A stretch of 64,000 bases of DNA, taken from Bacteroidota bacterium (GTDB lineage Bacteria > Bacteroidota > Bacteroidia > UBA4408). Below the pieces are notes generated by a model. The model made no database searches. It saw only the letters and a list, made by a program, of their open reading frames with translations, and was not told where the DNA came from. The stretch covers positions 35,357 through 99,356 of the forward strand of contig JAZKHE010000004.1 of assembly GCA_040385525.1 (NCBI GenBank), given 5' to 3'. Shown here in pieces: positions 9,219-57,222 of this stretch; position 1 is the first letter of the stretch, and each line of letters begins with the position of its first letter. The translations under genes and the position numbers were made by a program.

Positions 9219-10484
9219 TTAATATACAAGCAAACTTTTGTTGATAATTTTAGCTTCGGTTTGCACAATTGCATAGTATAAGCCAGTAGGGTAGTTTTTA
9301 TAGTTTACTAGCAAAACATCATCATTATCGGTACTTTCAACAATTTCTATTGGCATTTCTTGTCCAAACGCATTAAAAATTTTAACAATTAGTATTTCAG
9401 AATTATTAACAAGCTTTAAACTGCCAAAACCAGTTGATGGGTTTGGATAAAATTGTACAATATCGGTTTCGCTATTTATTTCTGGCTCAAAATAAACTAA
9501 TTTACTAAAAGTAAAATTACCGTTTGCATCTACTTGCTTTATTCTATAGTATTTCCCTTTAAAAGACAAATCAACCGATATCGAGTAATTGTTTGTTTTA
9601 TTACTATTTCCTGTTCCATTTATTTTTTTAATTGTTTCAAAATCTATTCCGTTGGTTGATTCTTCAACTTCAAAATACGAATTGTTTAACTCTAACGAAG
9701 TGCTCCAATTTATATCTAATACATTATTGTTTTGCACACAATCAAATGCAGAAAAAACGACTGGTAATGGTGTTAAACAAACATTATCAATATGCGCAAC
9801 AACCGAAAAATTATCAATACCCATGTGGTGATCGTTTGCAGCATCATTAACATCAGTAAAGCGCAACATAATTTCTGAATTAGCAGGAATATCAACTAGT
9901 AAACAAGAAGAAACATTACCTGATTGGCTACACGGATAACCCAATAATTGAGCGGAGTTACCACCAGTATCGCCAACGAATTGAGAAAAATTTAAACTAG
10001 AAAAATTAGTGTACGTTCCGCTTGTTAAATCAGTTATAGCTGAAGATGATACTTTGTATGAAAAAATATTTGTATTCAAATTCCCATCGTTTTCGGCCAA
10101 CGAAAACTGAAAATAATCGTAATTAATTTCTAAACTTTTAATAGTGCTCGCACTTGTATTTTTAATTCGTAAACCATAATAAATAGCGCCTGTTGTGCCC
10201 GATGGTCGAGAGCCAATTTTTTGGTCGCTACCACCACTACATCTGTACGAATAAAAACCACCCGTATTTGTTGGAGCAGTTGCTGTAATATTTAAATTAG
10301 TTACACCAAACGTTCCACCCGATTGTGAAGCGTACCAACCTGTGAACGTAGAGTTATTTGACCATGCAGAAATATTGCTTGCTCCAAAATTTTGAAGCAT
10401 TTTGTTGTTTGCTTCATTTATTAAAACTTGAGCATTTGCTGTGTTTGCAATTAATGTTATAGCTAAAAGTAAAATTTTACGCAT
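9219..10484 (-). CDS. Secreted T9SS cargo protein (421 aa) with the shared N-terminal beta-sandwich domain and a C-terminal T9SS sorting domain.
   Basis: Signal peptide MRKILLLAITLIANTANAQ. C-terminus FYPNPSTGFGSLKLV...TGLYYAIVQTEAKIINKSLLVY. Domain ends in ...HHMGIDNFSVV, like its paralogs. Confidence 0.75.
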   Translation of the reverse strand: MRKILLLAITLIANTANAQVLINEANNKMLQNFGASNISAWSNNSTFTGWYASQSGGTFGVTNLNITATAPTNTGGFYSYRCSGGSDQKIGSRPSGTTGAIYYGLRIKNTSASTIKSLEINYDYFQFSLAENDGNLNTNIFSYKVSSSAITDLTSGTYTNFSSLNFSQFVGDTGGNSAQLLGYPCSQSGNVSSCLLVDIPANSEIMLRFTDVNDAANDHHMGIDNFSVVAHIDNVCLTPLPVVFSAFDCVQNNNVLDINWSTSLELNNSYFEVEESTNGIDFETIKKINGTGNSNKTNNYSISVDLSFKGKYYRIKQVDANGNFTFSKLVYFEPEINSETDIVQFYPNPSTGFGSLKLVNNSEILIVKIFNAFGQEMPIEIVESTDNDDVLLVNYKNYPTGLYYAIVQTEAKIINKSLLVY

Positions 10485-10685
10485 GCTGTTTTTTTTTTAC
10501 AAAATAACAATGCGTATGTTAACTAAAGTAGCTTATGTAAGCTACTATATTATTACTATTGTATTAATAGTGTTATGAAATGGTTAGTGGAATTTTAATT
10601 AAAAATTACTTAAGAAAAAAATGATTAGTCTTTTAATTTTCAATTAAGTTCTATAAAACTGATAATTATCTATTAACGGAATATT

Positions 10686-10888
10686 TTTTCTTTTTCCTTG
10701 ATGAAAAAGAAACAAAAAATCAAGACTGCTGAAAAATAAAACGAAAATCTACATTTCTATTTTTTCACGTAACCAAAGCCGTTCGTGCGCCACACAATGC
10801 TAATCAACTCACTCGTTGATTACTTACTTTTTTCCCTCGCTAAAAATATCATTTGATTTTCTTGTTTTATTTTTCAAAGGTCAATCCC
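10686..10888. repeat. ~204-bp intergenic repeat, copy 1. No coding capacity; candidate sRNA or regulatory element.
   Basis: ~90% identical to 13033-13236. The first ~100 nt are near-identical, the middle has diverged, and the last 38 nt (ATTTGATTTTCTTGTTTTATTTTTCAAAGGTCAATCCC) are identical. Contains hairpins CTTGAT..ATCAAG and AATCAAC-TCACTC-GTTGATT. Confidence 0.6.
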
Positions 10889-10912
10889 TAGTTATAGCTA
10901 GTTACAAAAAAA

Positions 10913-11815
10913 CTACTTAACTATAAATTTTAAAAATGTTTTTTTATATTCATCAATTCCCATTGTATTGGGAACGCTACCATGCCCGCCACCACTAACT
11001 CGGTGTGCTTCGCTGTAAAAACCTTTGTAGTTTTTATAAACTACTTCGCCATGTGTTTCAATACTTAAAAAATCATCTTTTGTGCCGTGTATCCACATAA
11101 ATGGTTGCGAAACTTTTTTAATTTCTTCAGCATTATCAATTTTTAAATCGGTAAAGTACTCTGCAGGCATAGCCATTTTAGAGCCATCTTGCACCATAAC
11201 CGCAGCCGAAGCAAATGGTGCTTCTAAAATTAATTTACTAGGAACTAACGTTCTAGGATTTGCAGTAAGTTCTGTTGCGGGTGCCGAACCTAAACTAAAA
11301 CCATACATAATTAATCGTTTGTTATCCAATCCGTTTGCTTGCAACCATTGTAAACAAGCGTCAACATCTGCATACAAACCTTCTTCTGTAGCTACTCCTT
11401 TTGATAATCCATAACCACGATAATCCATCATTAAAACTCCGTAATGATTTTTTGCGCCTACGTTTGCTAACAATTTTGCTCGTTGCCAGTAAAAATCCAT
11501 ATGATCGCGATTGCCGTGACAATAAACAATAATAGTATCTGTTTTAATTTTAGAAATACTACCTATATAAATGGCTTTTATTTCTGTAGATTCTTTTTCG
11601 GAAGCTGTTTTAGAATTTAAAGAAAATAAGTGAATTAATGAATCAGGAATAGTGTAGGTTTCGTCTAATATAAAATCTACTTCGCCAGCATAATTATCTA
11701 AATAATATTCAGTAATTGTATTGTCGCTGTTGTATAAATTAGCATCTAATCTAAGACAAGAAGTAACTAAAATTAGAGCTGAAAATAGAAAAATATTTTT
11801 TGTAATTGATTTCAT
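10913..11815 (-). CDS. Alpha/beta-hydrolase fold lipoprotein (esterase/peptidase-like).
   Basis: Lipoprotein signal MKSITKNIFLFSALILVTSC. Nucleophile elbow GFSLGS (GxSxG). HGNRDH region typical of alpha/beta hydrolases. Confidence 0.7.
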   Translation of the reverse strand: MKSITKNIFLFSALILVTSCLRLDANLYNSDNTITEYYLDNYAGEVDFILDETYTIPDSLIHLFSLNSKTASEKESTEIKAIYIGSISKIKTDTIIVYCHGNRDHMDFYWQRAKLLANVGAKNHYGVLMMDYRGYGLSKGVATEEGLYADVDACLQWLQANGLDNKRLIMYGFSLGSAPATELTANPRTLVPSKLILEAPFASAAVMVQDGSKMAMPAEYFTDLKIDNAEEIKKVSQPFMWIHGTKDDFLSIETHGEVVYKNYKGFYSEAHRVSGGGHGSVPNTMGIDEYKKTFLKFIVK

Positions 11816-12058
11816 AAAGCATTTAAATTACTCTACAAAATTAGCAAAGAAAATATAAGTAACTAATAAATAGATACTTCGTATCGAGCACAATAATTAA
11901 ATTTCAACCACATAGATACATAGTTTTTTAGTTAAAATTAGAAAAACATAGTTTTTCGCTATGCGAAAAAGCTATGCCATCTTAGTGTTCTTGTTTTTCG
12001 ATGTTACTATTTGGTAAAAAAAAGACTGCTTCGTTCCTCGCAGAATAGTTGGTTAAAA

Positions 12059-12856
12059 TTACAACCTAATTCCCACAAGGGAAACATCGTCTGTTTGGTG
12101 CATATTTCCTTTCCAAGTTTCAAAAACAAATTCAAACAATTCTTTTTGCTTTCCCATAGTTTCATTACTATAATTTTGCAAAACATTTAGCAATCTTTTT
12201 CTACTAAACTTTTTAGAATTATTTTCATCAAATTGGTGTTTTACTCCATCAGAAAAAAAGTATAAACTAGTAGCTTCTTTTAGTTCAATTTTAAAAGTCT
12301 CAAACGAACGATTTTTTTCTATTTGCCAACCTCCAATAGGAAAACTATTCCCCTTAAATAAATTTATTTCATTATTCTGAATTACAGCAAATTCGCCACC
12401 AGCAGAAGCGTACTCTAACGTTTTATCTATAGTGTTATAAGCAACTAGCGTTATTTCTAACCAATCGTTATTAAAATAAGTATCGTGAGTTTCGTTATTA
12501 AAAGTTTCAATCCATTTTTTATCTAACTCTGTTAAATAATCACCAATTTTTTCAAACTTTTTTTGAATAATGTAATTCAATAAACTTATTCCCAAAACCG
12601 ACAACATAGCTGCAGAAGTACCATGCCCAGTGCAATCAGCCAAAGCAAAATAAACGATATTTTCTTTTTTTAATAACCAATAAAAATCACCGCTAATTTT
12701 GTTTTGTGGCGCGTAATACACAAAATAATCTGAGAAATGTTTTTCAAAATGTCGGCTTTTGGGAAGCAATCCATTTTGAATGGTTTGCGCATAAACAAGG
12801 CTTTGAACGTGATGTTCGTTAACTGTATTCAAATGTAGTTCTTTTATACTATTCAT
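12059..12856 (-). CDS. PP2C-family (SpoIIE/RsbU-like) serine phosphatase domain protein.
   Basis: Motif FALADCTGHGTSAAMLSV (D-x-TGHG) is characteristic of the SpoIIE/PP2C phosphatase domain. 265 aa. Confidence 0.65.
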   Translation of the reverse strand: MNSIKELHLNTVNEHHVQSLVYAQTIQNGLLPKSRHFEKHFSDYFVYYAPQNKISGDFYWLLKKENIVYFALADCTGHGTSAAMLSVLGISLLNYIIQKKFEKIGDYLTELDKKWIETFNNETHDTYFNNDWLEITLVAYNTIDKTLEYASAGGEFAVIQNNEINLFKGNSFPIGGWQIEKNRSFETFKIELKEATSLYFFSDGVKHQFDENNSKKFSRKRLLNVLQNYSNETMGKQKELFEFVFETWKGNMHQTDDVSLVGIRL

Positions 12857-13032
12857 AGTACAAAGAACACGTTAGCATATAAACAAAAAGCTATGCCAAG
12901 GTTAGCGAATTATTAATTCGCCTAAACAAAAAATTTTAACGATGAATTTTAATTGAATTTTTCAAAAGACAATACTTATAATTTCAATGAAACTAAACTT
13001 TTAAAAACTGAAATCTAACTAAACACTGAGCA

Positions 13033-13236
13033 TTTTTTCTTTTTTCTTGATAAAAAAGAAACAAAAAATCAAGACTGCTGAAAAATAAAACGAAAATCTA
13101 CATTTCTATTTTTTCACGTAACCAAAGCCGTTCGTGCCTAGCGCAATGCTTTTCAACTCACTTGTTGATTACTTACATAACCCACGCTAAAAATCTCATT
13201 TGATTTTCTTGTTTTATTTTTCAAAGGTCAATCCCG
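13033..13236. repeat. ~204-bp intergenic repeat, copy 2.
   Basis: See copy 1. Lies immediately 3' of gene 13276-13680 and 5' of the PP2C gene. Confidence 0.6.
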
Positions 13237-13275
13237 AAAAAAAACTTGTGGTATAATTATAGAGATTAATTATTT

Positions 13276-13680
13276 TTAATAAGCTAAATCTTCTATAAAG
13301 AAAAAGAAAACTACAGCAGCTACCCATTCTTTTCTTACGCCTTTACATTCGCCTAATCTGCTGCCATTGTAGTAAATATCGCCATCGCTTTCTATTTGTC
13401 CAATTCGGCTTCCATTTTTGTAAACATCTCCATCACTTTCTATCTGGCCAACACGACTTCCATTTTTATAAATATCGCCATCGCTTTCTATCTGTCCTAC
13501 TCTACTTCCGTTAACGTAAATATCGCCATCGTTTTCTATTTGTCCTTTACGAGAGCCATTAATATAAACATCGCCATCGTTTTCTATTTCGCCTTTACGA
13601 CTTCCTTTAATGTATAGGCTTTGCGCAGAAACTGCAGTGTATAAAAAAACACTAAATAAAATTAAGATTGCTTTTTTCAT
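13276..13680 (-). CDS. Small secreted protein made of six tandem 13-residue repeats (GSRxGQIExDGDxYxN).
   Basis: Signal peptide MKKAILILFSVFLYTAVSAQ. Repeats: GSRKGEIENDGDVYIN / GSRKGQIENDGDIYVN / GSRVGQIESDGDIYKN, six in total. The repeat is also visible at DNA level (39-nt periodicity). Confidence 0.6.
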   Translation of the reverse strand: MKKAILILFSVFLYTAVSAQSLYIKGSRKGEIENDGDVYINGSRKGQIENDGDIYVNGSRVGQIESDGDIYKNGSRVGQIESDGDVYKNGSRIGQIESDGDIYYNGSRLGECKGVRKEWVAAVVFFFFIEDLAY

Positions 13681-25191: not shown

Positions 25192-27264
25192 CTATGCTTT
25201 TATTGCATTTTCAAGCTCATTTATTTGGTTATTAATTACTGTTTCAAATTGAAAATAATCTTCTTTTTTAACAAACACATCATTTTTTACCCAAGCATCT
25301 GAAGCAAAATCACAAATCATTTTTTTAATCTCTTTTTCTTCAATTCTTGAAAAAGAAGTTAAGTGTTGTGCCATTTTAAGCAGCAATAATTTGTTGCGTT
25401 TTAAAATTGTTTCAGCCTCTTGTTCACATTCGTAAATTAAGGTCATTACTTCTTCACTATGTATTGATTTATGCACGATAGCTAAATCATCATGCGTATG
25501 TGAAAATCGGATAAATACAGGGTCATTACCCATCCCATATTCTTTTATAGCGCGATTAGCCATTTCACTTATTTTTTCAATATCACTAGAAACACCAGAC
25601 GAAGTTTGTTCTTCCCCAAAAATAATTTTTTCAGCCACATATCCTCCTAAACCAATTATTATTTCTTTTTTTAGAATTTCACGCGTGAGTGGTCCCTCTG
25701 GCATATTCACCATACAAAAACCTTCAGCAGTTGCTGAAACAGTTTTAGAAACAACTAAAGAAGGAATAATACGTAGTGTTAATGCAGCCAAAATAGCATG
25801 ACCTGATTCATGAACAGCTGTATGAGCTTGCAAATTTTTATTGTTAATTTTTCGGAGTTCGCCTACTTTAAGCATAGGCTTTTCAACATAAGTATTAATT
25901 GTATTATTTGCATGATCTTTAAAAACAAAAATGAAATTTTCATCTACATAATCCCAATTTACAGAATTTGTTTCTAGTTTTTTTTCAATAATTTCTAAAA
26001 CTATTTTACTTATACTTCCTTCAATTACATTTTTAACCGTTGTGAAAATTGGCCTTGTACCTTGAGCTGGATAAACCCCCTCGCTGTAAACTACATCAAC
26101 AACATTTTCGCTAAAATTAATTTCAAAATTGAAATATTCTTTTACATATATGTTTATTGCATTTAGTTTTTGGGTAATGATATCTCTAAAATTTTGATTG
26201 GTAAAAGAACGAAAGATGATATGATTATTTCCCAAACGGGCAATTTGTTCGTTTCGAAATCTTTCTTGAAGAGCTTTTTTTATATGCGCTACATTTATTT
26301 TTAGAGTTGCTTCATTCAATTCATCAGCACTAATATCTGGATTCATACTATGACTCATATAGTAAGCCTCATCTAAATTTCCTAAAACAAAAATAAGTCC
26401 TCTAGACAAATCCAATTGTTTAATAGCGGTTCTTTTGTTCATGCCTTCTATTAGCAAACGTTGAATGCCTTTTAAATCTGTATTTTCAATAATCTCCTTT
26501 AATTTGTTTCTAGTTATAGATAGATCATTATATAAATAGAAAACTCCATCAATAAAATCATTAGAAAGAAAATAATTGCTATTTACACTCTCTCCATTTC
26601 TATTAGCATTCTCAAAATAAAAATCGCTAAATGTATTTAAAAATTCACTTTCACTATTTATTACAACTCCATCTCTGATACCAACTCCTTTATCTTCGCA
26701 TTTAAGCAAATAAACCAGACAAATTTCTGCACGCACAACGTAGTAAGAATTATGATAAGGTATGTAATTCACTTTACCACTATCAAGTAAATCCCATATT
26801 ACTCTTAATTTATCTTTTCCTAATTCATTACCTTCTTTGTTTATCGTTCTCGCAAACTGAAATTCATCAAAACAAATTATACCCGGCTGCTCATGGAAAA
26901 ATTCTAGGTCATCAGTAAACATTCCTTTTATCCACGAAGCCGAATCTGATTCAAATTCACCCATATCCATTTGAACATATAAACGCTTGTAATCCAATAA
27001 TTCAACCATTTTGTTTACTAAAGCAGTTTTTCCAGATCCGGTTAAACCCCACATATTAATTACTGTTGGTCTTAGTTGAGCGTCAGGAAAAAGATACCAC
27101 GGTGTTATTAAATTAATTACTTCATCAATAATATTATTTAGTCCAATAAATTCTTTTTTCAAAGTTTTTTGTACTTCGTTTAATCTTTGTTTCTTTAAAA
27201 CTATATTATCGTATATATCGATTTTATTCATATTATTTTTTCTTTGTAAACTTTGATCCTTCAT
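25192..27264 (-). CDS. Cytoplasmic P-loop ATPase fused to an FtsH-like M41 zinc-metallopeptidase domain. No transmembrane segment.
   Basis: Walker A GLTGSGKT and Walker B ICFDEFQ in the N-terminal half. C-terminal HESGHAIL (HExxH) and the third-ligand region [40 protein letters not shown] match the FtsH protease domain. Its start overlaps the 3' end of prfH by 32 nt. Confidence 0.65.
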
Positions 27265-27862
27265 AAATTCTTTTAGGATTTCCGCGTTCGAGTAAGTTAT
27301 GATTATTCCACAGTTTATATTGCTCTTCCATTGCTTGATGTAATTGCCATTTAGTATACTCTTCTTGTAATTTTAATGCAGCAATTTTTTTATTCTGTAA
27401 TTGTGAACGGCTCTCATTTATAGTAATCTGTATTCCAGAGGAAATGTGTTTAGCTCTTACAGCCGTTTCCACTTTATTTACATTTTGACCTCCAGGGCCC
27501 GAAGAACGCATAGTTTGATATACAATATCCTTTTCATTCCATGGTGGGAGGTCTATTAAATTAATATTGTAAATTCCAATGAACCAGTTTTTTCGTTTAT
27601 GCAATTTTCTATATGGGCTTTGATTGATCCAGAGTAAAACACCTGTCCATGAATTTATAAAACTATCTACATTTTTACCTTTCAATTTAATAGATACAGA
27701 AGAATAAGTACCTTCTTCAATTCCTTTAGTTTGTTCAATTATTTCATACATCAATTTTAACTCATTTGCTTCTTTTAGCAATTCATTTAAAGCTAACGCA
27801 ACTGCCTTACAGCATTCTGAAGGGCCTTTTCCCGATGTTATTTGTATAATTTTTGTGTCCAT
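27233..27862 (-). CDS. prfH: Peptide chain release factor homolog PrfH (RF-H).
   Basis: 209 aa with GGQ motif ([16 protein letters not shown]). N-terminal ...[17 protein letters not shown] typical of PrfH. It lies immediately downstream of an rtcB, the classic rtcB-prfH pairing. Confidence 0.75.
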
Positions 27863-27904
27863 TTTTTTAAAATTAAGAGGCTGTTTAATTACAACCTCTT
27901 TTGT

Positions 27905-29308
27905 TTAACTTTTATTCATCCTTACTATTCTTGGCGTAAACGAGCCTTCAACATTAACGAGGCCGGATTGATTACTCATAACTGTTTCAATATCTTTATA
28001 AGCTAATGAAGATTCTTGGACACTACCACCAATTAATTTAACCTTGTGTTGATCAAGAGTTACGTTCATTTGTGATTTTGTTATTTTTTCACTTGCTTCT
28101 CTTCTCGACATTTTTCTTCCAGCTCCATGTGAAGCAGAGTTCAATGAACCTGAAGCTCCAACACCACTAACAATATAGCCTTTACTCGTCATACTACCCG
28201 GAATGATCCCCAATTCACCTTTAGCAGCAGGGGTAGCTCCTTTTCTGTGCACTATTAATTCTTGCCCATCGTGGATTTCTTTCCATGCAAAATTGTGATG
28301 GTTTTCAACTTTACAAATGGCTTTTAAACCCATAAAACGTTCTAGATTATTATGAATTACATCGTGGCAAGCTTTAGCATAGTCGCCTGCTAAATTCATC
28401 GATAACCAATATTCTTGGCCAGCTTCGTCATCCATACTCAACCATGCCATAGAACGCATTTCTTTTGGAAGTTTACATTTTTCCATTGCAATTTTTGTGT
28501 AAATACCTGCAATAGTAGCTCCCATTCCTCTAGACCCGCTGTGCGATAATAAGCCAATGTATTTCCCTGCAGCAATTCCTAAAGCGTTATTTTCATTTAT
28601 TTCCACATCACCAAATTCAACAAAATGATTTCCTGTACCCGAAGAACCTAGCTGATAACGAGCTTTTCCATGCAATCTTTTAAGCAAATCGGTTGCTTTA
28701 AATTCCCGTCGTTCCAAAACTTCATGATCTACATCAAAATCAAGCGTACCATCATTACCAAAATGAGTACATCTACGTAAAGCTTTTTGCAAATCATACT
28801 CTTTTTTAAGAATATAATTTTCTGGCAATTCATAGATACTTAAAGCCATTCTGCATCCAATATCTAAGCCAACTCCAAAAGGAATTACAGCGTTGTTAAC
28901 AGCAAGTGCAGCTCCAATTGGTAAACCATAACCATGGTGCGCATCAGGCATTAAAGCTCCTTTAACCGATACAGGTAAACGCATCGCTGCTTCCATTTGA
29001 AGAATAGCATTTTGACCAATAAGACGTTGACCGTAAATAGTAAAATCGCCAGTGTTTTTAAGCACATGAACTTCGTAACTGGTTTTAATTTTTGGCTTAC
29101 CACATAACTCATCTGATAAGGGTTTCAAAAATTCGTGTTCCAAATATTGTTCAGGATCTAAAAGAACGTTATTAATTATTTCTAATTTTTCATCTATCGA
29201 AAAGTGTTTATAGTTTTTCGACATAATATTTATAGCCACACTTTTGGCTATATCTGATGGGAAATCAAATTTTCTAAGATGCTTTCCCGTTATGAGATTT
29301 TTTCCCAT
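27905..29308 (-). CDS. rtcB: RtcB-family RNA 3'-phosphate ligase (paralog B, PrfH-associated).
   Basis: 467 aa. RtcB motifs GNHFVEFG, HSGSRGMG, SASHGAGRKMSR. Confidence 0.8.
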   Translation of the reverse strand: MGKNLITGKHLRKFDFPSDIAKSVAINIMSKNYKHFSIDEKLEIINNVLLDPEQYLEHEFLKPLSDELCGKPKIKTSYEVHVLKNTGDFTIYGQRLIGQNAILQMEAAMRLPVSVKGALMPDAHHGYGLPIGAALAVNNAVIPFGVGLDIGCRMALSIYELPENYILKKEYDLQKALRRCTHFGNDGTLDFDVDHEVLERREFKATDLLKRLHGKARYQLGSSGTGNHFVEFGDVEINENNALGIAAGKYIGLLSHSGSRGMGATIAGIYTKIAMEKCKLPKEMRSMAWLSMDDEAGQEYWLSMNLAGDYAKACHDVIHNNLERFMGLKAICKVENHHNFAWKEIHDGQELIVHRKGATPAAKGELGIIPGSMTSKGYIVSGVGASGSLNSASHGAGRKMSRREASEKITKSQMNVTLDQHKVKLIGGSVQESSLAYKDIETVMSNQSGLVNVEGSFTPRIVRMNKS

Positions 29309-29490
29309 GATATTTTTTAAATTTTATGGGCATGATTTTTCCTTTACAGTTTTTTTAATGCAAAGGATAAGTTCATAAAACGCATAGCATTTTTACCCTG
29401 TTTTTTTTTATAAAATGATTTTTTGGTTTCCGGATTTTTCTGTCTCCCCAGAATTTTATTTGTTTTTAGTTTATTTTGAAAAAATAAAAC

Positions 29491-29520
29491 AAATAAAAAA
29501 GCCCGGCATTAAACCGGGCT
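29491..29520 (-). terminator. Rho-independent terminator downstream of rtcB paralog A.
   Basis: Minus-strand reading: GCCCGGTTTAATGCCGGGC hairpin (6-bp GC-rich stem) followed by TTTTTTATTTG. Confidence 0.6.
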
Positions 29521-29909
29521 GAATATATTGATATTAGCAGCTTTTCGGCTTAAAACGTCGTATGTGAATTTGCTACTAACATAATTTCTTTTCTTTTTTT
29601 GGTTGGTGTTTTTTAATAAATCTGTCACAAATGTAAATCAAAAAATTGATTTGTCAAGTACAAAATATTTTTTTTTGCGTTAAAATTATTTCATTTATTT
29701 TTTTTAACCTTCAGAAGCATTGTAAAAAAAGGTGTTATAGAGGTTAATTAAAATGATTATAAATTTACCAAAGTCAAAAAAATTAAACAAAGTTTTTGTT
29801 GAGCTATCAGTTATAAAACAGAATAGGGTTTCAACCTAGATCCTTCAATTTGTCAATAGACAGACGACGATCAACCGAAGTGTCTCTATTCATGTCACTT
29901 TTGAATACT

Positions 29910-31331
29910 TTAATCTTCTCTGCTGCCATCATCTGCCATACGAACAATTTTAGGAGTAAATTTTGCAACTACATCAATTAGGTCTTTTTGTGAAGCCATA
30001 ACAGTTTCTATATTTTTATAAGCCATCGGTGCTTCATCTAAACCAGCACCAATTAATGTTACACCATGATCCTTTAGTACTTTTCTCATTTCGTCTTTAG
30101 AAATATTTTTAATTGCTTGTGTTCTACTCATTTGTCGACCTGCACCGTGTGATGCTGAATTAATTGCATTTGCTTCACCTTTACCTCTTACTAAAAAACC
30201 AGGGGCTGTCATTGATCCAGGTATAATACCCATTACATCTTTAGAAGCAGGAGTAGCACCTTTTCTATGAACAATTACTTCTTCTCCGTTCCACATCTCC
30301 TTCCAAGCAAAATTATGATGGTTCTCTACTTTAGCCAATACTTCTGCACCAATAGCTTTAGCTAAACGATTGTGAATTATTTCATGACAAGCTGATGCAT
30401 AATCACCAGCTAAATTCATTGCCATCCAATACTCTTGTCCTTCAGCAGAATTCATATCTAAGTAAGCTAAATTTGCTGCTTCTTTAGGAAGTTTACAAAT
30501 TTCTTTCGCTACTTTGGTATAATATCCTGCTATTGTTGCACCAAATCCTCTTGATCCCGAATGTGTTAACAACGCTAAGTATTTTCCTTTTTTGATATTT
30601 AATTTTTCATCATCATTTTCAAATTCAATAATTCCAAATTCTACAAAGTGATTTCCGCCACCTGAAGAACCTAATTGTTCAACAGCTTTTTGTTGAAGAT
30701 TTTTTACAAACGGTGTCATATTAAACTCTGTTCTATCTAATATTGAATGCTCAGCTCTATATTTACCATGCCATCCAGCGCCAGCGCCAAATTTAGTCCA
30801 GGCAATTAACTCTCTTTTATATTTGCTTTCATTCTCTATAAAATGATTCTCATTAATATCATAGATGGACAAAGCCATTCTACAACCAATATCAACGCCT
30901 ACACCATAAGGAATAATAGCGTTTTTTGTAGCCAATACTCCACCAATTGGTAAACCATACCCTTGATGAGCATCAGGCATTAAAGCACCAGCAACTGTTA
31001 CGGGCAATTTCATGGCTATTTCCATTTGATTAATTGCGCCTTGCTCAATGTTTTCTGAACCAAAAATAGAATAAAACATTCCTTGCTCTTTTAATGCAAC
31101 AGTAGCATCTTCATTTGGTTTTTCAATTAATTTTTGAGCAATAGCTTCAAGAACTTCGTCGTCTAAAAAGTTCTCTGGATATTGAACTACCTTAGTTAAA
31201 ATTGCGATTACTTCCTCTTTCTCTAATTCAGCATAATTTTGCTCAACTACTTTAATGGCTATTCCAATTACTTTTCCTTCAGGATAACCTAAAGCTTTTA
31301 ATTCAGCTCCTGATACGTTAACTATTTTCAT
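29910..31331 (-). CDS. rtcB: RtcB-family RNA ligase (paralog A).
   Basis: 473 aa. GGGNHFVEFG, HSGSRGFG, SASHGAGRQMSR. Roughly 50-55% identical to paralog B by eye. Monocistronic: an operator-like palindrome lies upstream and a terminator downstream. Confidence 0.8.
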   Translation of the reverse strand: MKIVNVSGAELKALGYPEGKVIGIAIKVVEQNYAELEKEEVIAILTKVVQYPENFLDDEVLEAIAQKLIEKPNEDATVALKEQGMFYSIFGSENIEQGAINQMEIAMKLPVTVAGALMPDAHQGYGLPIGGVLATKNAIIPYGVGVDIGCRMALSIYDINENHFIENESKYKRELIAWTKFGAGAGWHGKYRAEHSILDRTEFNMTPFVKNLQQKAVEQLGSSGGGNHFVEFGIIEFENDDEKLNIKKGKYLALLTHSGSRGFGATIAGYYTKVAKEICKLPKEAANLAYLDMNSAEGQEYWMAMNLAGDYASACHEIIHNRLAKAIGAEVLAKVENHHNFAWKEMWNGEEVIVHRKGATPASKDVMGIIPGSMTAPGFLVRGKGEANAINSASHGAGRQMSRTQAIKNISKDEMRKVLKDHGVTLIGAGLDEAPMAYKNIETVMASQKDLIDVVAKFTPKIVRMADDGSRED

Positions 31332-31418
31332 CTTGTTTTTTTTAATTATGATACAAAATAAATACTAAACTACGCAGTCAAATTGCGCAGTTGATTTTTT
31401 TTCATTTTTTTTTAAAAT

Positions 31419-31440
31419 CCCTCGCCCAAATTGACGAGGG
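31419..31440 (-). terminator. Possible terminator hairpin after the SPFH gene.
   Basis: CCCTCG-cccaaattga-CGAGGG hairpin 10 nt after the stop. Only a short U-run (AUUUUA) follows on the minus strand. Confidence 0.3.
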
Positions 31441-31450
31441 ATGCTACAAT

Positions 31451-32551
31451 TTATTTACCTGGAACAAATATCTGTTTTAACTGATCCACTAAATGAGTTC
31501 CTCCTGACAATGAAATATTATTAATTTTCTCTGCAATCTTCTCTACATATTCCATTTCTTTCAATTTAAACAACATAGTGTTTTCTTCCATCAATTTAGC
31601 AGTATTCAATAAACTTCTAGTTGAAGCAGTTTCTTCTCTTCTCATGATGGTATTAGCTTGAGCCTTTTTCTCCGCAACTAATACTTGATTCATAATATCT
31701 TTCATATCTCCTGGCAAAATTATATCTCTGATACCACTTCCTTTCAATACTACTCCCAAAGATTCTACTTTTTCAGACATCGACTCCATAACATAAGCTG
31801 AAATAGATTCTTTTTTTTCTAACAACTCATCTAATGTTAATGAACCTATGAACTCTCTCAAAGCTAATTGCAACAGTACATATAGTTGTTTATCATACTC
31901 CTTGTTATTTACTAACGCCTTAACAATATCTTTTATATTGTATTGAGCATAGAAATTAACTCTTAGTGCTGCTTTGTCTTTTGTCAAAATCTCTTGTCCA
32001 GCAATTTCCATTTGCATAGTTCTTAAATCAGCTCTTGAAATCACAATAGAAGTGCTATTCTTCCAAAAGTTGTAAGTACCTGACTCCATGATTTTATGAA
32101 ATTTACCATCAACATACATCACTGCTTTTTCATGTGCTTCAACTACAAAGTTCCTCACAAATGGGGCGATTTCTTTTTTAGTCAATAAAGATTTATCGAT
32201 GTCATTATCAATTTCAATTTGATTTAAATCAATGATATTAAAATTGTAATTTATCAAGCCTTTCCAAAAAATGTATCTACCAGCATTTAATACAGTAGTA
32301 AATAATCCATTTTCGTATTGTAAAGCAATTTCATTATTTTTTACTTCAACAATCAAAGTTGCATTTAGAAAATCTTCATTTTTTAATAAGATATTTATAT
32401 TAACTGGCGCTATTAATGGTTTTGACATATCACAGTCAAATACAACCATAGTTGGCCACAACCAATATGTACCTTCGTTTAAAACTTTTACCAAATTATC
32501 ATTTTTAAACACTAAGCCTTTTTTCCAGGCATTTATTTTTACTCTTTTCAT
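31451..32551 (-). CDS. SPFH/band-7 (stomatin/HflKC-like) domain protein, apparently without a TM anchor.
   Basis: SPFH core ...TKDKAALRVNFYAQYNIKD...LDELLEKKESISAYV...GVVLKGSGIRDIILPGDMKDIMNQVLVAEKKAQANTIMRREETA. N-terminal triple repeat of a GTYxFW hairpin motif. Confidence 0.6.
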   Translation of the reverse strand: MKRVKINAWKKGLVFKNDNLVKVLNEGTYWLWPTMVVFDCDMSKPLIAPVNINILLKNEDFLNATLIVEVKNNEIALQYENGLFTTVLNAGRYIFWKGLINYNFNIIDLNQIEIDNDIDKSLLTKKEIAPFVRNFVVEAHEKAVMYVDGKFHKIMESGTYNFWKNSTSIVISRADLRTMQMEIAGQEILTKDKAALRVNFYAQYNIKDIVKALVNNKEYDKQLYVLLQLALREFIGSLTLDELLEKKESISAYVMESMSEKVESLGVVLKGSGIRDIILPGDMKDIMNQVLVAEKKAQANTIMRREETASTRSLLNTAKLMEENTMLFKLKEMEYVEKIAEKINNISLSGGTHLVDQLKQIFVPGK

Positions 32552-32869
32552 TTTATTTTTGTTTTAATGATGGATGAATCCGGCATCATACCATCGGGGT
32601 TATTTAATTTTTTATAAAAAAGAAGGAACAATTCATTCATTAATTTTAAGCGAAGTTCGACTTAAGCTCATGTCTCAAATGATGGTTTATATAAATTCAT
32701 AATCCATTAAAAGGAAAACTATACTTTATAGAAAGCAGCATCTTTACAGAAGCGGTATCCGTGCCCCTTGGCAAATCATCAATTGCTTTTTACAAATTTA
32801 TATGCTAAAGCTGAATGAGATTATCCCTTCTTAATTAGGAGCCTTTTTTATAGAAGTTGGCGTCTTCTT

Positions 32870-33011
32870 CCACTGAAACCACAATTCAGCGCTCTAACCA
32901 ACTGAGCTATTCCAATTTTGAGCTGGAAGCAGGATTCGAACCTGCGCTTTGAGGTTGCTGCTCTACCAACTGAGCTATTCGCTATTAACGAAATGGGAAT
33001 CGAACCCATGA
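32870..33011 (-). pseudogene. Cluster of degenerate tRNA-like fragments: a 5'-truncated tRNA-His(GTG)-like piece, a related 5'-truncated piece fused to an unrelated T-arm/acceptor, and an isolated T-arm+acceptor 3' piece.
   Basis: Minus-strand reads GGAATAGCTCAGTTGGTTAGAGCGCTGAATTGTGGTTTCAGTGG (D-arm plus anticodon arm, loop TTGTGGT gives GTG), GCGAATAGCTCAGTTGGTAGAGCAGCAACCTCAAAG|CGCAGGTTCGAATCCTGCTTCCAGC, and CATGGGTTCGATTCCCATTTCGTTAA. None folds into a complete cloverleaf. ORF 32848-33072 is spurious. Confidence 0.5.
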
Positions 33012-33403
33012 CACACAACGTGAGACACACAAAATAATTACGCAGAATACAAGCAATCAAAGATTGTTGCACTATGGGGAAAGGAAACCCTCATCTTGGC
33101 GCAAAAATTTATTTATGCATCATTCTCCTCTTTTCAGAGAAGATTTTTAATCCTGATTTTCAGGAAATATTTTCAAGGAACTTTATTACTTTAAATCAAC
33201 GATGCAAATTTTATACTCATGTACGCAGTCGAATTGCGTACTAAAATTATTTTTAAATAGTTTATCAATTTAAAATGTAAATGACTGGTTTTCAACAAGA
33301 AAAAATCACTAGTAATTAGGTTAATTTTAAATCTACGCAAATACAATGCGTAGATGATTAATAAATAGTATATTTACGTTAACTAATTTTTCAAAACTTC
33401 AAT

Positions 33404-34417
33404 ATGCCAATTAATAAATTAGCTTTAGTTAGATACAAAACAATAGATAATTGTTTGCAAAATCGTTTTAGAAAATGGACATTAGAAGACTTAATGGAAG
33501 CCTGTTCTGATGCGATTTATGAATATGAAGGAATTACAAATGGAGTAAGCAAACGCACTATACAACTAGATATTCAGAACATGCGCAGTGAAAAACTAGG
33601 ATATAATGCCCCTATTATAGTTACAGATAAAAAATATTATAGCTATGAAGAAAAGAATTATAGTATTACTAATATTCCTTTAACACAACAAGATTTAAGC
33701 ACCTTGAATGAAGTACTTGATGTATTAAAACAATTTAAAGGTTTTGGTTATTTCCAAGAATTAAACGGAATGGTTACTCGTTTAGAAGATAAACTTTATA
33801 AACAACAACATAGAGGCAAGTCATATATTGATTTCGAAAAAAACGAATTATTAAAAGGATTAATACATATTGATGCACTACATAAAGCAATTATTAATAA
33901 GAAAACAATTGAAGTAACTTATCAATCATTTAAAGCAAAGCTTCCACAGCAAATTGTATTTTATCCCTATTTATTAAAAGAATACCGCAATAGGTGGTTT
34001 ATTTTAGGTGCAAATAAAAATGGAAAAACAATAATGATATTAGCATTAGATAGAATAGAAAAATTTAAAGAATTAAATTCTGAAAAATATCACAAATCAG
34101 AATTTGATGTTAATACTTATTTTAATGATGTAATTGGTGTTTCAAAAATGCCCACCCAGAAGCCACAACTTATTGTTATGAAAATAATTAAAGAGCATGC
34201 TCCATATATAATTACAAAACCCATGCATAGTTCACAAAAAATTTTGAGTGAAGATTCTGAAGGAGTTATCTTTTCAATTGAAGTTATTTGGAATTTTGAG
34301 CTGGAAAGAGAAATTCTTGGCTTTGCTGAACATTTAAAAATAGTTAGTCCTAAAAGATTATCAGGAAGAATACAATCACGAATGAAGAATACACTCACAA
34401 AATATCAAATGGAATAA
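33404..34417 (+). CDS. WYL-domain transcriptional regulator (HTH_11 + WYL; BrxR/CapW-like architecture).
   Basis: N-terminal HTH (GVSKRTIQLDIQNM). WYL hallmark YRNRWFILGANKNGKTIMILALDRIEKF. Two palindromic TACGCA-N7-TGCGTA sites lie upstream. Confidence 0.65.
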   Translation: MPINKLALVRYKTIDNCLQNRFRKWTLEDLMEACSDAIYEYEGITNGVSKRTIQLDIQNMRSEKLGYNAPIIVTDKKYYSYEEKNYSITNIPLTQQDLSTLNEVLDVLKQFKGFGYFQELNGMVTRLEDKLYKQQHRGKSYIDFEKNELLKGLIHIDALHKAIINKKTIEVTYQSFKAKLPQQIVFYPYLLKEYRNRWFILGANKNGKTIMILALDRIEKFKELNSEKYHKSEFDVNTYFNDVIGVSKMPTQKPQLIVMKIIKEHAPYIITKPMHSSQKILSEDSEGVIFSIEVIWNFELEREILGFAEHLKIVSPKRLSGRIQSRMKNTLTKYQME

Positions 34418-40887: not shown

Positions 40888-43800
40888 TTAAACTCTTAAC
40901 ATCCTTTTTAAAGTATCTTGCATTGCAATTCTAAACGCATCGTCTTTTGCTAATAAGCGATATAATTCCAGTTCGTTTTTACGTTCAGAAGAAACTACAT
41001 CCTCAAATATTTTCATAAAGGCAATGCCTTTATTTTGTTCATCCATGTTTTCTTCAAACTTAGTTTTGAAATCAGGATGAGATTGTATTTTACTGGCAAG
41101 GCTTACAAACTTAACACGTTGTTCTTCTGGTGTTATACTCCAGCCTTGAAACCAACGTTCGTTAAAGCTCTTAATAATTAAATCTAATTGGTCTTCCTCT
41201 GAATCGCTACCATGTGCACTTCGTGGATTTGGATTTTGTGGGTCTAATTCAGTTTCAGTTGAATCTAATCCAATGTGTGCATTTAATTTAACTCGTTCTA
41301 ACCCATAGGTTGATAAATCAACTGAATTTAATAATTCGTCTAATGCATCTGAATTGCGGTCAATGATAACTAATTTTGGAATTAAGAATTTTAAAAACCA
41401 AAAAAGCTTTTCCCATTTTAAAACTTCATAAGGCAATATTGAGGCCATTTGTCCGTAAATCTTCACAAACTGCTTGGCTTTAATTTTATAATCTGCTTTT
41501 ACCTTGTCTTCTAATTCGAGTTGATTGTTAAATCTATCGGCTGCAATATCAATTATGGGACTTAATTGCTCAGCATTAACTCCTTTAAAATATTTCTCTA
41601 CAAAATCTTCTACCTCGCTCCATTCATAAACGCCTGCATCATCTAAATGTGTTTTTAATTCATGTAATACATTAACGTCAGTTGCTTTACTTAATGTGGT
41701 TGATGTATAAAATGGATCAAAGGCTTGTTTAATATCTTCGGTTGCATTAAAGAAATCGAGTACAAATAAATCTTCCGTTTTTTTCCCTAGTTTATCTGCT
41801 GCACGGTTTAATCGTGATAGAGCTTGAACAGCTAAAACACCTTGTAGTTTTTTATCTACATACATGGCGGTTAGCTTTGGTTGATCGAATCCTGTTAAAT
41901 ATTTATTGGCAACAACTAACACTTTATAGTCATCTTCATCAAATTTATCTCGTGTATCTTTTTCTGCAAAACCATTTAAACTATCTTCCGTGTACTCAAT
42001 ACCATTAACCAGTTTTGAGCCCGAAAAAGCAATAGCAGCCTTAAATGGATTTCCTTTTTCATTTAATATTTCTTGAATAGCTTTAAAGTAATGAATAGCG
42101 GATTCTATACTTTGAGTAATAACCATCGCTTTTGCCTTACCTTTTAATTTTTTGGTATTTACTATTTTGGAAATAAAATGATCCATCATAATATCTGCTT
42201 TGGTAGCAATGGTATCTTTATTTCGCTCAACAAAAGCACGTAATTTTTTTTGAGCTTTAGAGGTATCAAATAATGGGTTTTCAGAAATAGATTTTTCTAT
42301 TTCATAGTAGCTTCTATAAGTTGTATAATTTGCTAATACATCTAAAATAAAACCTTCTTCAATCGCTTGTTTCATTGAATATAAGTGGAAAGGCTTGTAC
42401 TTACCATCTTCTTGTTTTACTCCAAATTTTTCAAGTGTTATGTTTTTAGGTGTTGCTGTAAAGGCAAAATATGAGGCATTAGTACTCATTTTGCGATTAT
42501 GCATTGCCTCAATAATTTTATCTTGAGCATCTGTTTCTTCTTCATCGCCAGTACTTGAAATAGCACGATTCATATTATCTGCTGCTGAACCACTCTGTGA
42601 ACTATGAGCTTCATCAATAATAACTGCAAAGCGCTTATCACTTAAATCGGCGATACCATCTACAATGAATGGAAATTTTTGAATGGTAGTAATGATGATT
42701 CGTTTACCACTTTCTAAACTTTCTTTTAATTCTTTTGATGAGTAAGCTGGAGCCACAATGTTTTTTACTTCAGAAAACTCTTTAATATTTTCTCTTAATT
42801 GCTTATCCAATAATCTTCTATCAGTAACAATAATTACTGAATCAAATAATGGATTTGATACTCCTTTACTTCCAGGAACGGTATTGTTGATTGGATACGT
42901 TTCAATTAATTGATAGGCTGCCCATGTAATTGAATTGGATTTACCTGAACCTGCAGAGTGCTGTATTAAATACGTTTGACCTAATCCATTTTCGCTTGCA
43001 TGATTTATTAAACGCCTTACTACATCCATTTGATGGTAACGAGGGAAATATAAACTCTTTTTATTTAAAGCATCTGTTTCTTTTCCATCAAAGCGAACAA
43101 AGTGTTGAATAATATTTGCTACACTTTGACGTGTTAATACTTCATCCCACAAATAACTTGTTTTATGACCAAATGGATTTGGGGGATTTCCTTTACCAAA
43201 GTTGTGACCTAAATTAAATGGTAAAAAGAATGTATTACCTCCATCTAATTTAGTTGTCATATATACCTCGTCGGTATCAACTGCAAAATGGACTAAGCAT
43301 CTGCCAAATTGCAATAATGGTTGTGTTATATCTCGTTTAAACTTGTATTGGTTTTGACCATGTACCTTGGCATTTTGACCTGTCCATTGATTTTTTAATT
43401 CAACAGTGCTAAATGGTATACCATTAATAAATAATACCATGTCAATTTCTTCGCCTTTATTAACTTCTGAATAACGAATTTGGCGTGTAACACTAAATTC
43501 ATTTTTATCAAAATTATCTTTAACTGTTTGACTACTGCTTGCTAGAGGCAATTGATATAATAACGTGAAGTGAGCGTCATCCACTTCTAATCCTTTACGC
43601 AACAAACGAATGATGCCGTATTTTTTAATTAAACGATCTAAACGTTCGAGTATCTTTAATTTCCAATCACTTTGTTTTTGTAGTTTAAGTAATTCTTCTT
43701 TTTGAGTAGTTTCTAGAAAATGCCAAAAGCGGTTTTCATCAATGGCAAATTGTGGATTAAAATCTTTGGCTTCACCTAAATAATAACCATTACCACTACG

Positions 43801-43926
43801 ATAGAGTTCTGCTCTTTCGGCAAAAGCATTTACTACCCCTAAAGCTTTTAATTCTTCAAGAGTTGTACCTGTTAATTTTTTTTCAATTACAGCTTCAAGA
43901 GCTTGTTCGTTGGTTTGACTAGTCAT
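40888..43926 (-). CDS. hsdR: Type I restriction enzyme R subunit (HsdR).
   Basis: 1012 aa. Walker A GSGKSNSI. DEAH box VIIDEAHSSQSG. Helicase C domain. C-terminal HsdR-specific region. Confidence 0.85.
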   Translation of the reverse strand: MTSQTNEQALEAVIEKKLTGTTLEELKALGVVNAFAERAELYRSGNGYYLGEAKDFNPQFAIDENRFWHFLETTQKEELLKLQKQSDWKLKILERLDRLIKKYGIIRLLRKGLEVDDAHFTLLYQLPLASSSQTVKDNFDKNEFSVTRQIRYSEVNKGEEIDMVLFINGIPFSTVELKNQWTGQNAKVHGQNQYKFKRDITQPLLQFGRCLVHFAVDTDEVYMTTKLDGGNTFFLPFNLGHNFGKGNPPNPFGHKTSYLWDEVLTRQSVANIIQHFVRFDGKETDALNKKSLYFPRYHQMDVVRRLINHASENGLGQTYLIQHSAGSGKSNSITWAAYQLIETYPINNTVPGSKGVSNPLFDSVIIVTDRRLLDKQLRENIKEFSEVKNIVAPAYSSKELKESLESGKRIIITTIQKFPFIVDGIADLSDKRFAVIIDEAHSSQSGSAADNMNRAISSTGDEEETDAQDKIIEAMHNRKMSTNASYFAFTATPKNITLEKFGVKQEDGKYKPFHLYSMKQAIEEGFILDVLANYTTYRSYYEIEKSISENPLFDTSKAQKKLRAFVERNKDTIATKADIMMDHFISKIVNTKKLKGKAKAMVITQSIESAIHYFKAIQEILNEKGNPFKAAIAFSGSKLVNGIEYTEDSLNGFAEKDTRDKFDEDDYKVLVVANKYLTGFDQPKLTAMYVDKKLQGVLAVQALSRLNRAADKLGKKTEDLFVLDFFNATEDIKQAFDPFYTSTTLSKATDVNVLHELKTHLDDAGVYEWSEVEDFVEKYFKGVNAEQLSPIIDIAADRFNNQLELEDKVKADYKIKAKQFVKIYGQMASILPYEVLKWEKLFWFLKFLIPKLVIIDRNSDALDELLNSVDLSTYGLERVKLNAHIGLDSTETELDPQNPNPRSAHGSDSEEDQLDLIIKSFNERWFQGWSITPEEQRVKFVSLASKIQSHPDFKTKFEENMDEQNKGIAFMKIFEDVVSSERKNELELYRLLAKDDAFRIAMQDTLKRMLRV

Positions 43927-43931
43927 TTAAA

Positions 43932-44666
43932 TTAATTAATCAATTTGTTTATAATATCATGAGCTTTTTTAATATCAGCTGTTTGATCATTTTCGTTTTT
44001 GTATCCTATTTTACCAACATATACATTGTTATTATGTTCGGTGAAATAAACCCTTAGTGCGGTTGGTAAATAAACTCTCAATTCATAAACAGAGCATTCA
44101 TATTTATTTGGTGTTACATCCTTGACTATTTTGGTGTCAGGATAATATTTTGTTTTTAAATTTCGAGCCTTAGCTTTTTCAAAATCTTCAATAATAGATA
44201 CTTGCTCTTGAGGAGTTAATGTGTTAAATTCTTTTTCAAATTCCGATGAAATGAAAGCCTTTTCTAATGTCACTTTAAGTTTTTCATAAGTTGATGAACC
44301 AGCATAACACCATTCTTTATATGTGGAATCATTTATTATCTGTTTATCAGGACTAATAACACTTCCTGTGAAATTTATTCCAAGAAAAGCATATTTTTTT
44401 CCGTTAGTTTGTAAAATAGCACTTTCATCGTTATTTATATAGTTGCTTACTGAAGAAAGCTTACCAATGAATTTTATTATTTCTTGTACTTCTTGTCCAT
44501 TATTAGCAAATAGTTCAACATAGTATTCTAATTCATAAACGGATTCATGCTTACAAAAATCATCCTCCTTCTTTCTATCAATTGTTATTAGTTCACTCAT
44601 ACCTTCTTTGAAATCAGAAAAATTACCCTTAGTTAAAGTTTCATTTATTAAAAACAAGTGGCTCAT
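43932..44666 (-). CDS. Hypothetical protein, third gene of the embedded DUF262-ATPase cassette.
   Basis: 244 aa, no recognisable motif. Start overlaps the ATPase stop by 4 nt. Confidence 0.45.
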   Translation of the reverse strand: MSHLFLINETLTKGNFSDFKEGMSELITIDRKKEDDFCKHESVYELEYYVELFANNGQEVQEIIKFIGKLSSVSNYINNDESAILQTNGKKYAFLGINFTGSVISPDKQIINDSTYKEWCYAGSSTYEKLKVTLEKAFISSEFEKEFNTLTPQEQVSIIEDFEKAKARNLKTKYYPDTKIVKDVTPNKYECSVYELRVYLPTALRVYFTEHNNNVYVGKIGYKNENDQTADIKKAHDIINKLIN

Positions 44667-47214: not shown

Positions 47215-47238
47215 AATTAATATTCCTATTTAAATATA

Positions 47239-50915: not shown

Positions 50916-50923
50916 GAAATTTT

Positions 50924-51127
50924 TTATTTAGTAGTTTTTGAAATTTGAGAAATTAATTCTCTTGGTTCAACATTTAGTAATTGACCTATTTTAAACAATA
51001 TTTCAATACTTGGCTGGCTTCTATTCTGTGCATATGAATTAACCATATTATAACTTTTACCGAGCTTTTCAGCTAACCAAATTTGTGTTTGCCCTTGTTT
51101 TTCAAGAACCTCTTTAATACGATTCAT
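50924..51127 (-). CDS. Small XRE-family HTH regulator (possible R-M controller protein).
   Basis: 67 aa. HTH QIWLAEKLGKSYNMVNSYAQN. Immediately upstream of hsdM. Confidence 0.6.
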   Translation of the reverse strand: MNRIKEVLEKQGQTQIWLAEKLGKSYNMVNSYAQNRSQPSIEILFKIGQLLNVEPRELISQISKTTK

Positions 51128-51368
51128 TATAGTTTTATATAATTAGATAAATATACATGAAATAGTTTTATATCTCGTTATTCGAGATATTAATTTATCA
51201 ATCTCATGTAAAAAACCAATTATAAAAAGTAATAAAACACAATTAGAAGCTTGCTTTTCTTGAAAAAACGTCATCAAATTTTGACATTATAGAATAATAT
51301 AATTACATGACAAAAAAGGGAAAAAGTAATTAATTCAAGAATTTAAACGTTATATATTTTCAAAAAAA

Positions 51369-55571: not shown

Positions 55572-55786
55572 TAACCTCTTATCGCTGAAGAAATAATAAT
55601 TCCAATTGCTAAAATAAATGCAGCAGCAATAATAGCTAGTGCCTTATTTTGTTTTTCAAAAATTTCTTTTCTAATATTTTCAGGTGTTATTACTTCAATT
55701 ATCCAAAAAGCGAACAATAGAATCAAAATTCCTAAAATAGAGTATACAACGGCAGTGCCAATGTATTGTAAATGTAGTGCTTCCAT
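55571..55786 (-). CDS. DUF350-family small membrane protein.
   Basis: 71 aa, two TM helices (MEALHLQYIGTAVVYSILGILILLFAFWIIE...). DUF350 is commonly found next to SpeE-like genes. Confidence 0.5.
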   Translation of the reverse strand: MEALHLQYIGTAVVYSILGILILLFAFWIIEVITPENIRKEIFEKQNKALAIIAAAFILAIGIIISSAIRG

Positions 55787-55804
55787 ATTAAATTTATTTA
55801 TTAA

Positions 55805-57221: not shown

Positions 57222-57222
57222 G

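Follow-up and report, generated by a model that had tools for sequence, protein, structure and literature searches.

A stretch of 64,000 nucleotides from a Bacteroidota bacterium (contig JAZKHE010000004.1, positions 35,357 to 99,356; hereafter, the window) carries two copies of an intergenic, hairpin-rich repeat of ~295 bp, at 10590-10888 and 12944-13235. Comparison with a close relative, in which both sites are empty, makes it modestly probable that this is a lineage-restricted, non-autonomous insertion repeat that resembles MITEs (miniature inverted-repeat transposable elements) without being a canonical one. We favor recent insertion because it explains together why the sites are empty in the relative, why the unit has discrete ends and why conservation between the copies is modular. 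The repeat matched nothing in the databases searched and, on this reading, would be a find of an ordinary sort: a new family of small, structured insertion repeats without known relatives. An earlier reading of the same DNA, made from the sequence alone, had offered three options (a small RNA gene, a MITE-like element or a duplicated regulatory region), and among these the empty sites favor the MITE-like element.

Both repeat sites are empty in a close relative

The alpha/beta hydrolase and SpoIIE/PP2C phosphatase genes lie between the two copies. In a search of 5.8 billion proteins for homologues of the phosphatase, the nearest match (P0001, on contig L002) was 94% identical in protein sequence and all others were at most 71% identical. 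The gene order of L002 is that of the window: NUDIX, a 226-amino acid protein, Bflower_2, PP2C, hydrolase and a type IX secretion system (T9SS) protein. The genes of the two loci are 88-92% identical in DNA sequence, and their third-codon positions are 74-80% identical, a near-neutral divergence of 20-26%. Outgroup loci (~70% PP2C identity) have a different gene order and contain nothing resembling the repeat.

At site 1, between hydrolase and T9SS protein, L002 reads GGTTAACT followed by ATGTTATG and the window reads GGTTAGTG, then 10590-10888, then TAGTTATAG. The DNA absent from L002 is exactly the repeat unit, so that both ends of copy 1 coincide with the ends of the indel. At site 2, between Bflower_2 and PP2C, the indel relative to L002 runs from about 12944-12953 to 13273, and its left junction is the left end of the unit. 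Because the relative keeps the genes and their order but lacks the unit at either site, the repeat is, on this comparison, a discrete inserted unit. Its history would comprise either two gains in the lineage of the window or two precise losses in the lineage of L002. The filled and empty sites that distinguish MITE-bearing genomes from their relatives are thus seen at both positions. Additionally, no host function need be assumed, as the relative lacks the element.

The spacer between Bflower_2 and PP2C measures 420 bp in the window and 95 bp in L002, that between PP2C and hydrolase 244 and 57 bp, and that between hydrolase and T9SS protein 429 and 98 bp. All three spacers of the four-gene cluster are longer than those of the relative because a third, unrelated insertion of ~187 bp adds to the two repeats (11816-12058, core about 11860-12050, between PP2C and hydrolase). 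This third insertion holds a good terminator-like hairpin on the gene strand (11970-11952, then a T-run) and a 22-nt motif, AGACTGCTTYGTWCCTSGCAGA, that resembles repetitive extragenic palindromic (REP) sequences. The motif occurs once in the window (12023-12044) and twice in a spacer at about 14330-14500 of L045, a contig that reaches left beyond the window, with GTAG before one of the two copies there. In either copy of the element, the left repeat arm has as its outer part a 9-mer of this motif, AAGACTGCT, adjoining an A/T run; in this setting the 9-mer has three matches in the window (0.38 expected).

The copies combine near-identical and diverged segments

The two copies stand in direct orientation, 2.35 kb apart, and are 82.6% identical across 299 nt, which is far above chance (blastn E=1e-78). 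Both open at the left with the 11-mer GAATTTTAATT, found just three times across the window. The right terminus is AATCCC, directly after the right arm of the inverted repeat described below. Identity between the copies is distributed unevenly (Table 1): the two conserved blocks together have 2 differences in 153 nt (151/153 the same), and the left arm and centre differ by 28-40%. Aligned by itself, the left arm scored 19, compared with 11.9 +/- 1.9 for dinucleotide shuffles, a score that was reached by 4 of 1000 shuffles.

The sequence-only reading had placed a ~204-bp element at 10686-10888 and 13033-13236, with conserved ends and a diverged centre. Both copies are indeed located there, and the conserved ends correspond to blocks of 112 and 41 nt. 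However, the diverged left arm was missed, and the unit extends ~95 nt further left to a length of ~295 bp. The identity of 151/153 nt beside segments diverged by 28-40%, set against a near-neutral divergence of 20-26%, excludes uniform decay in place of two copies since an early insertion. Recent insertions from distinct family variants, on the other hand, would produce such mosaic conservation.

An internal inverted repeat closes a branched structure

Within each copy, a 26/28-nt inverted repeat closes a branched structure of ~160 nt, in which the long helix surrounds hairpins 2 and 3 while hairpin 1 stands outside it (Table 1). The element had been described earlier as being without obvious terminal inverted repeats; this repeat was overlooked, though it lies within the unit and not at its ends. 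The predicted single-sequence folds exceed those of shuffled sequences in stability on both strands, with z = -5.9 and -4.3 for the plus strand and z = -3.9 and -2.7 for the minus strand. On the minus strand, which is the gene-sense strand, ~4 extra G-U pairs lengthen the closing helix to 28 bp, and the helix is followed by the U-rich tract UUGAUUUUUUGUUUCUUUUU.

The sole compensatory pair detected by alifold, on both strands, is found in hairpin 1, where the loop-closing pair is C-G in copy 1 (10696/10703) and T-A in copy 2 (13045/13052). These two changes are all of the substitutions in the 112-nt block, an arrangement for which we roughly estimate a chance of ~0.3%, and template switching in a quasi-palindrome can yield the same pattern without selection. 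Because the only two substitutions of the block form both sides of one pair, the comparison of copies suggests that hairpin 1 matters, either as RNA or as DNA.

The lean of the sequence-only reading towards an RNA rested instead on hairpin 3, in the diverged centre, which it had taken to be compensated. In that reading the 3' arm of copy 2 was misread as GTTGAA. The 3' arm is GTTGATT in both copies, and the 5' arm has changed from AA to TT in copy 2. Because the 5' arm alone changed, and the stem went from 7 to 5 bp, hairpin 3 is not compensated; two pairs were lost.

Coding capacity and tests for an RNA gene

No open reading frame (ORF) is common to both copies, and the longest stop-free stretches (<50 codons) are copy-specific. 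Thus, the unit is non-coding. The 12-codon ATG ORF that was noted previously is present in copy 1 (10701-10739), and, as also noted, its ATG is gone in copy 2 (G to A).

The proposal of an RNA gene was not borne out by a Rfam 15 covariance scan, in which neither copy was overlapped by a match, whether the cut-off was the gathering threshold or E<=10. Additionally, the Bacteroidota -7 box TAnnTTTG was absent in or beside either copy on both strands, and a terminator scan found no canonical terminator inside the unit. Because there is no Rfam family, no TAnnTTTG box and no canonical terminator, the sequence evidence does not support an independent RNA gene with its own promoter and terminator. 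Identities as a 6S RNA, a retron or an omega-RNA-like element were rejected, as there was no Rfam support and no adjacent partner gene.

All four neighboring genes are on the minus strand and the repeats bracket hydrolase and PP2C, as the sequence-only reading had stated. Each copy begins a short distance past the stop codon of the upstream, co-directional gene (24 nt for copy 1, 40 nt for copy 2), and each runs to within 88-105 nt of the point, further downstream, where the next gene starts. The native upstream regions of the downstream genes lie outside the repeat unit, and these genes are functionally unrelated.

Contig breaks and database searches

Three short-read contigs of the same organism, L001, L041 and L042, were read over their whole length; they match the window at 100% identity and break at the repeat. 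Logan contig L046, also of this organism, extends past the right end of the window. The right-hand contig breaks, at 10859 and 13206, lie exactly 30 nt inside the shared block, as k=31 predicts. The left-hand breaks, at 10715 (L042/L045) and 13064 (L001), come 18 nt before the position that k=31 predicts for two copies and fall at the 3' edge of hairpin 1. Because these breaks come early, the assembly arithmetic suggests that the sample holds more copies, or a flipped-hairpin variant, sharing the hairpin-1 31-mers of both variants.

Among plasmids and phages, blastn with word size 11 found no relative of the repeat, nor did exact matching in IMG/VR of 18-23-mers taken from hairpin 2, from the right terminus and from the left repeat arm. 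A 23-mer from hairpin 2 had 0 matches in GTDB genomes, and a 21-mer from the same hairpin had six in JGI metagenomes, all in unrelated GC-rich coding DNA. A degenerate pattern for both repeat arms gave 31 matches in GTDB genomes, none of which extended past the pattern. Going by these searches, the repeat family is restricted to a lineage barely sampled in public collections. In Bacteroidota, MITEs are plentiful and for the most part confined to single genera (PMC11602168), with which an orphan family from a lineage of little sampling agrees.

Weighing insertion against its alternatives

A number of observations weigh against the reading of the repeat as a MITE-like insertion. The inverted repeat is internal, with its left arm beginning 134 nt from the left end of the unit, and the unit ends lack the terminal inverted repeats of at least 10-15 bp that define MITEs, in that GAATTTTAATT and GGTCAATCCC are not inverted copies of each other. 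No convincing target-site duplication is found at either site and no reading suits both. At site 2, the right junction overshoots the unit by 37 nt, a tail for which the insertion reading gives no account. No transposase is encoded in the window, the sole recombinase being a tyrosine integrase (59305-60492) 47 kb away. There are just two copies in the ~74 kb of this organism that were read: sensitive blastn and nhmmer found none other in the 64-kb window, searches for diverged copies with the same tools returned only the two in the window and all fetched loci, and nhmmer found no further copy in 8.6 kb of neighboring sequence left of the window (Logan contig L045, same organism). The empty sites come from one relative only, so that precise loss there and gain here are indistinguishable. 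Lastly, gene conversion could have made the blocks identical, the two copies being direct repeats separated by 2.35 kb. As the inverted repeat is internal and target duplication is not established, we do not file the unit as a canonical MITE; its length of 292-299 bp and its lack of coding capacity are those of MITEs (50-800 bp, no coding capacity).

Candidate target duplications were considered at both sites. TAGT possibly stands on both sides of site 1, with nothing comparable at site 2. At site 2, TTTTAAT is found on both sides, but on the left it is element sequence that copy 1 has too, and on the right it overlaps a stop codon that is native. An 8-bp duplication, AATTTTAA / TTTTAAT, by which the element would measure about 320-327 bp including 37-nt tails, was rejected. 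Its left-hand repeat is element sequence in both copies, while its right-hand 8-mer falls inside the hydrolase coding sequence at site 1 and at site 2 overlaps the native Bflower_2 stop codon, which is present also in the relative. Additionally, the site 1 tail is partly alignable with the 3' flank of the relative, and the two tails are unrelated.

If the repeat were instead a host-selected structured RNA, either a ~160-200-nt small RNA gene or a cis-acting structure of a 3' or 5' untranslated region in two paralogous copies, the identical blocks would follow from purifying selection acting on the fold. The conserved blocks do match the predicted helices and have 0-2 differences in 153 nt beside segments diverged by 28-40%, the fold z-scores range from -2.7 to -5.9, the only two changes in the 112-nt block make up the compensatory pair of hairpin 1, and G-U pairs stretch the closing helix in the gene sense. 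We nevertheless consider this account unlikely, given that the closest relative is without both copies and retains all flanking genes, that the downstream genes are unrelated and have their native upstream regions outside the unit, and that three conserved probes found no homologue in GTDB genomes or JGI metagenomes. The empty Rfam, -7 box and terminator scans speak against it as well, and a single compensatory pair can arise by template switching. A related possibility, drawn by analogy to the guide or bridge RNAs of IS605 and IS110-type elements, is a lineage-specific structured RNA of ~160-200 nt carried on a mobile cassette. Its scaffold (the closing helix and hairpins 1 and 2) would be invariant and its centre and 95-nt arm variable, and the variable modules would specify something copy-specific, with a protein partner encoded elsewhere in the genome. 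We hold this to be decidedly improbable.

A non-mobile local duplication, in which an intergenic segment was copied once within the 4-kb cluster and kept identical in parts by gene conversion while the relative deleted both copies, would agree with the two known copies lying close together in direct orientation, with the longer spacers throughout the cluster and with the failure to find a clear target duplication or a transposase. It requires, though, two independent deletions in the relative whose ends match the unit ends at 3/4 junctions, as well as two conversion tracts (112 and 41 nt) that happen to match helices. Moreover, a copy number above two is hinted at by the contig ends at 10715 and 13064, and the flanking genes, whose duplication the sequence-only reading had named as the sign of a segmental remnant, are single-copy. 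Local duplication therefore appears quite unlikely to us. The direct repeats also bracket exactly two genes, and each is an imperfect palindrome just downstream of a stop codon, as might be the case for recombination sites (attL/attR or integron attC type) bounding a PP2C-hydrolase cassette or an island. That explanation is barely credible and was dropped: the relative has the same two genes in the same place without the repeats, no integrase is adjacent, and the words AATCAAC and GTTGATT, which resemble the attC words RYYYAAC and GTTRRRY, are separated by only 6 nt and sit mid-unit, whereas those of attC stand at the two ends of the site.

A model for the origin and effects of the repeat

Under recent insertion of a MITE-like repeat, each of the two copies would come from an insertion event of its own, and their two sources, members of a larger family, would already have diverged by then. 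The source copies would have had the inverted-repeat arms and hairpins 1 and 2 in common and have differed in the left arm and centre. Mobilisation may have been the work of a recombinase or transposase whose gene lies elsewhere in the genome, in which case the repeat arms and subterminal hairpins would have been kept because they were needed for movement.

An RNA-level role for the unit is possible, given its place in the 3' region of co-directional genes, its one compensatory pair and the extra gene-sense G-U pairs. Transcription of the upstream genes that ran on into the unit (minus strand) would yield RNA with a long AU-rich helix and, after it, the U-rich tract. By analogy with Correia and enterobacterial repetitive intergenic consensus (ERIC) elements, the helix and tract could dampen read-through or serve as a site for the processing or stability of the transcript.

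If the insertion reading is true, the repeat would add one more genus-level family to the large, mostly uncatalogued set of small intergenic mobile repeats of Bacteroidota. The repeat breaks short-read assemblies at both sites, its strong stem-loop between co-directional genes may uncouple transcription, and the PP2C-hydrolase pair could be lost by deletion between its 100-nt identical direct repeats. Interest would attach to the mosaic only if more copies showed a scaffold kept by selection on RNA.

Features of the repeat and of the window

Table 1. Repeat units, their parts and the flanking genes, in window positions.
Feature	Position (copy 1)	Position (copy 2)	Strand	Description
Repeat copy 1	10590-10888			299 bp; between hydrolase stop (10913) and native upstream region of T9SS-tail gene; extent from blastn and pairwise alignments
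Repeat copy 2		12944-13235		292 bp; between Bflower_2 stop (13276) and native PP2C upstream region; extent from blastn and pairwise alignments
Diverged left arm	10590-10685	12944-13034		~95 nt, ~60% identical; first 11-mer (GAATTTTAATT) conserved
Conserved block 1	10686-10797			112 nt; 2 differences between copies
Hairpin 1	10687-10712	13036-13061		TTTCTTTTTC-CTTGAT-GAAAAAGAAA; separate 10-bp hairpin; alifold on both strands and inverted-repeat scan
Left arm of long inverted repeat	10724-10749	13073-13098		GACTGCTGAAAAATAAAACGAAAATC
Hairpin 2	10766-10787	13115-13136		CACGTAAC-CAAAGCC-GTTCGTG; copies identical
Diverged centre	10798-10847	13147-13194		~50 nt, ~72% identical (13 mismatches and a 2-nt gap); holds hairpin 3
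Hairpin 3	10802-10821			inside diverged centre; described in the sequence-only reading; stem 7 bp in copy 1, 5 bp in copy 2
Conserved block 2	10848-10888			41 nt; copies identical
Right arm of long inverted repeat	10855-10882	13202-13229		GATTTTCTTGTTTTATTTTTCAAAGGTC
Tail beside copy 2		13236-13273		~37 nt; missing from relative, not common to copy 1, resembles no element part
T9SS-tail protein	9219-10484		minus	
Alpha/beta hydrolase	10913-11815		minus	
SpoIIE/PP2C phosphatase	12059-12856		minus	
Bflower_2 protein	13276-13680		minus	

The window (G+C = 30.8%) is of a Bacteroidota-type genome, with several T9SS C-terminal sorting-domain proteins and with PP2C homologues that are annotated as Bacteroidota metagenome-assembled genomes. 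Four 48-nt tandem repeats in the Bflower_2 gene (13352-13608, 73-80% identity) correspond to the repeating blades of its protein fold. Upstream of the T9SS gene, in native sequence, is an 8-bp hairpin, AGTAGCTTATGTAAGCTACT (10527-10546), where the alignment with the relative shows a 13-nt gap. A match to the L13-leader family of Rfam at this hairpin is below threshold (21.7 bits, threshold 38) and is probably due to chance.

Elsewhere in the window, 40888-60778 is a probable genomic island integrated next to tRNA-Asp and tRNA-Glu (60612-60778), which the tyrosine integrase adjoins. Along with the integrase and a helix-turn-helix protein, the island carries a defence cluster of a type I restriction-modification system (HsdR 40888-43926, HsdS 47239-48567, HsdM 48567-50915), a GmrSD-like nuclease (45817-47214) and an AAA_15/AbiEii-like ATPase (44663-45817). 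A further region, 27233-34417, encodes two RtcB RNA-ligase paralogues (27905-29308 and 29910-31331) with an RF-1-domain protein, a Band_7 protein and a WYL/WCX regulator (33404-34417). An 850-bp spacer in this region has a weak tRNA-like Rfam match (32921-32982, 35 bits) that was not called by ARAGORN and could be a tRNA-like or Y-RNA-like partner of an RtcB repair operon.

Comparison with known systems

Correia elements of Neisseria and the ERIC elements of enterobacteria, also known as intergenic repeat units (IRU), are imperfect palindromes, 100-300 bp long, that occupy transcribed spacers separating co-directional genes. They form long stem-loops in mRNA, can terminate, process or stabilise transcripts, and occur as modular or mosaic variants. 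Correia elements have terminal 26-bp repeats and a TA duplication. The repeat described here is like these elements in its palindrome, its spacer position and its mosaic variants, and has no sequence similarity to them. Unlike in Correia elements, the helix spans only the right-hand 160 bp of the 295-bp unit.

The palindrome-associated elements derived from IS200/IS605 (PATEs) and the REP sequences and their mosaics (REP/BIME) lack terminal inverted repeats and target duplication, carry hairpins near their ends and are intergenic (PMC3733652). Our repeat likewise has no terminal inverted repeats, has hairpins near its ends and is intergenic, and no clear target duplication was found for it. 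In contrast to them, no common tetranucleotide flanks both insertions on either strand, the window encodes no Y1 transposase or REP-associated tyrosine transposase (RAYT), and the unit far exceeds a REP in length.

Bacterial MITEs, including those of Porphyromonas gingivalis (PMC4596501) and of a Bacteroidota census (PMC11602168), differ from the repeat in that its inverted repeat is not at the unit ends, its 2-10-bp target duplication is not established, only two copies are seen and there is no known partner transposase. Like these MITEs, however, the repeat is small (50-800 bp), non-coding and intergenic, has an inverted repeat of >15 bp, is present in one and absent from another of two close relatives, and is lineage-specific.

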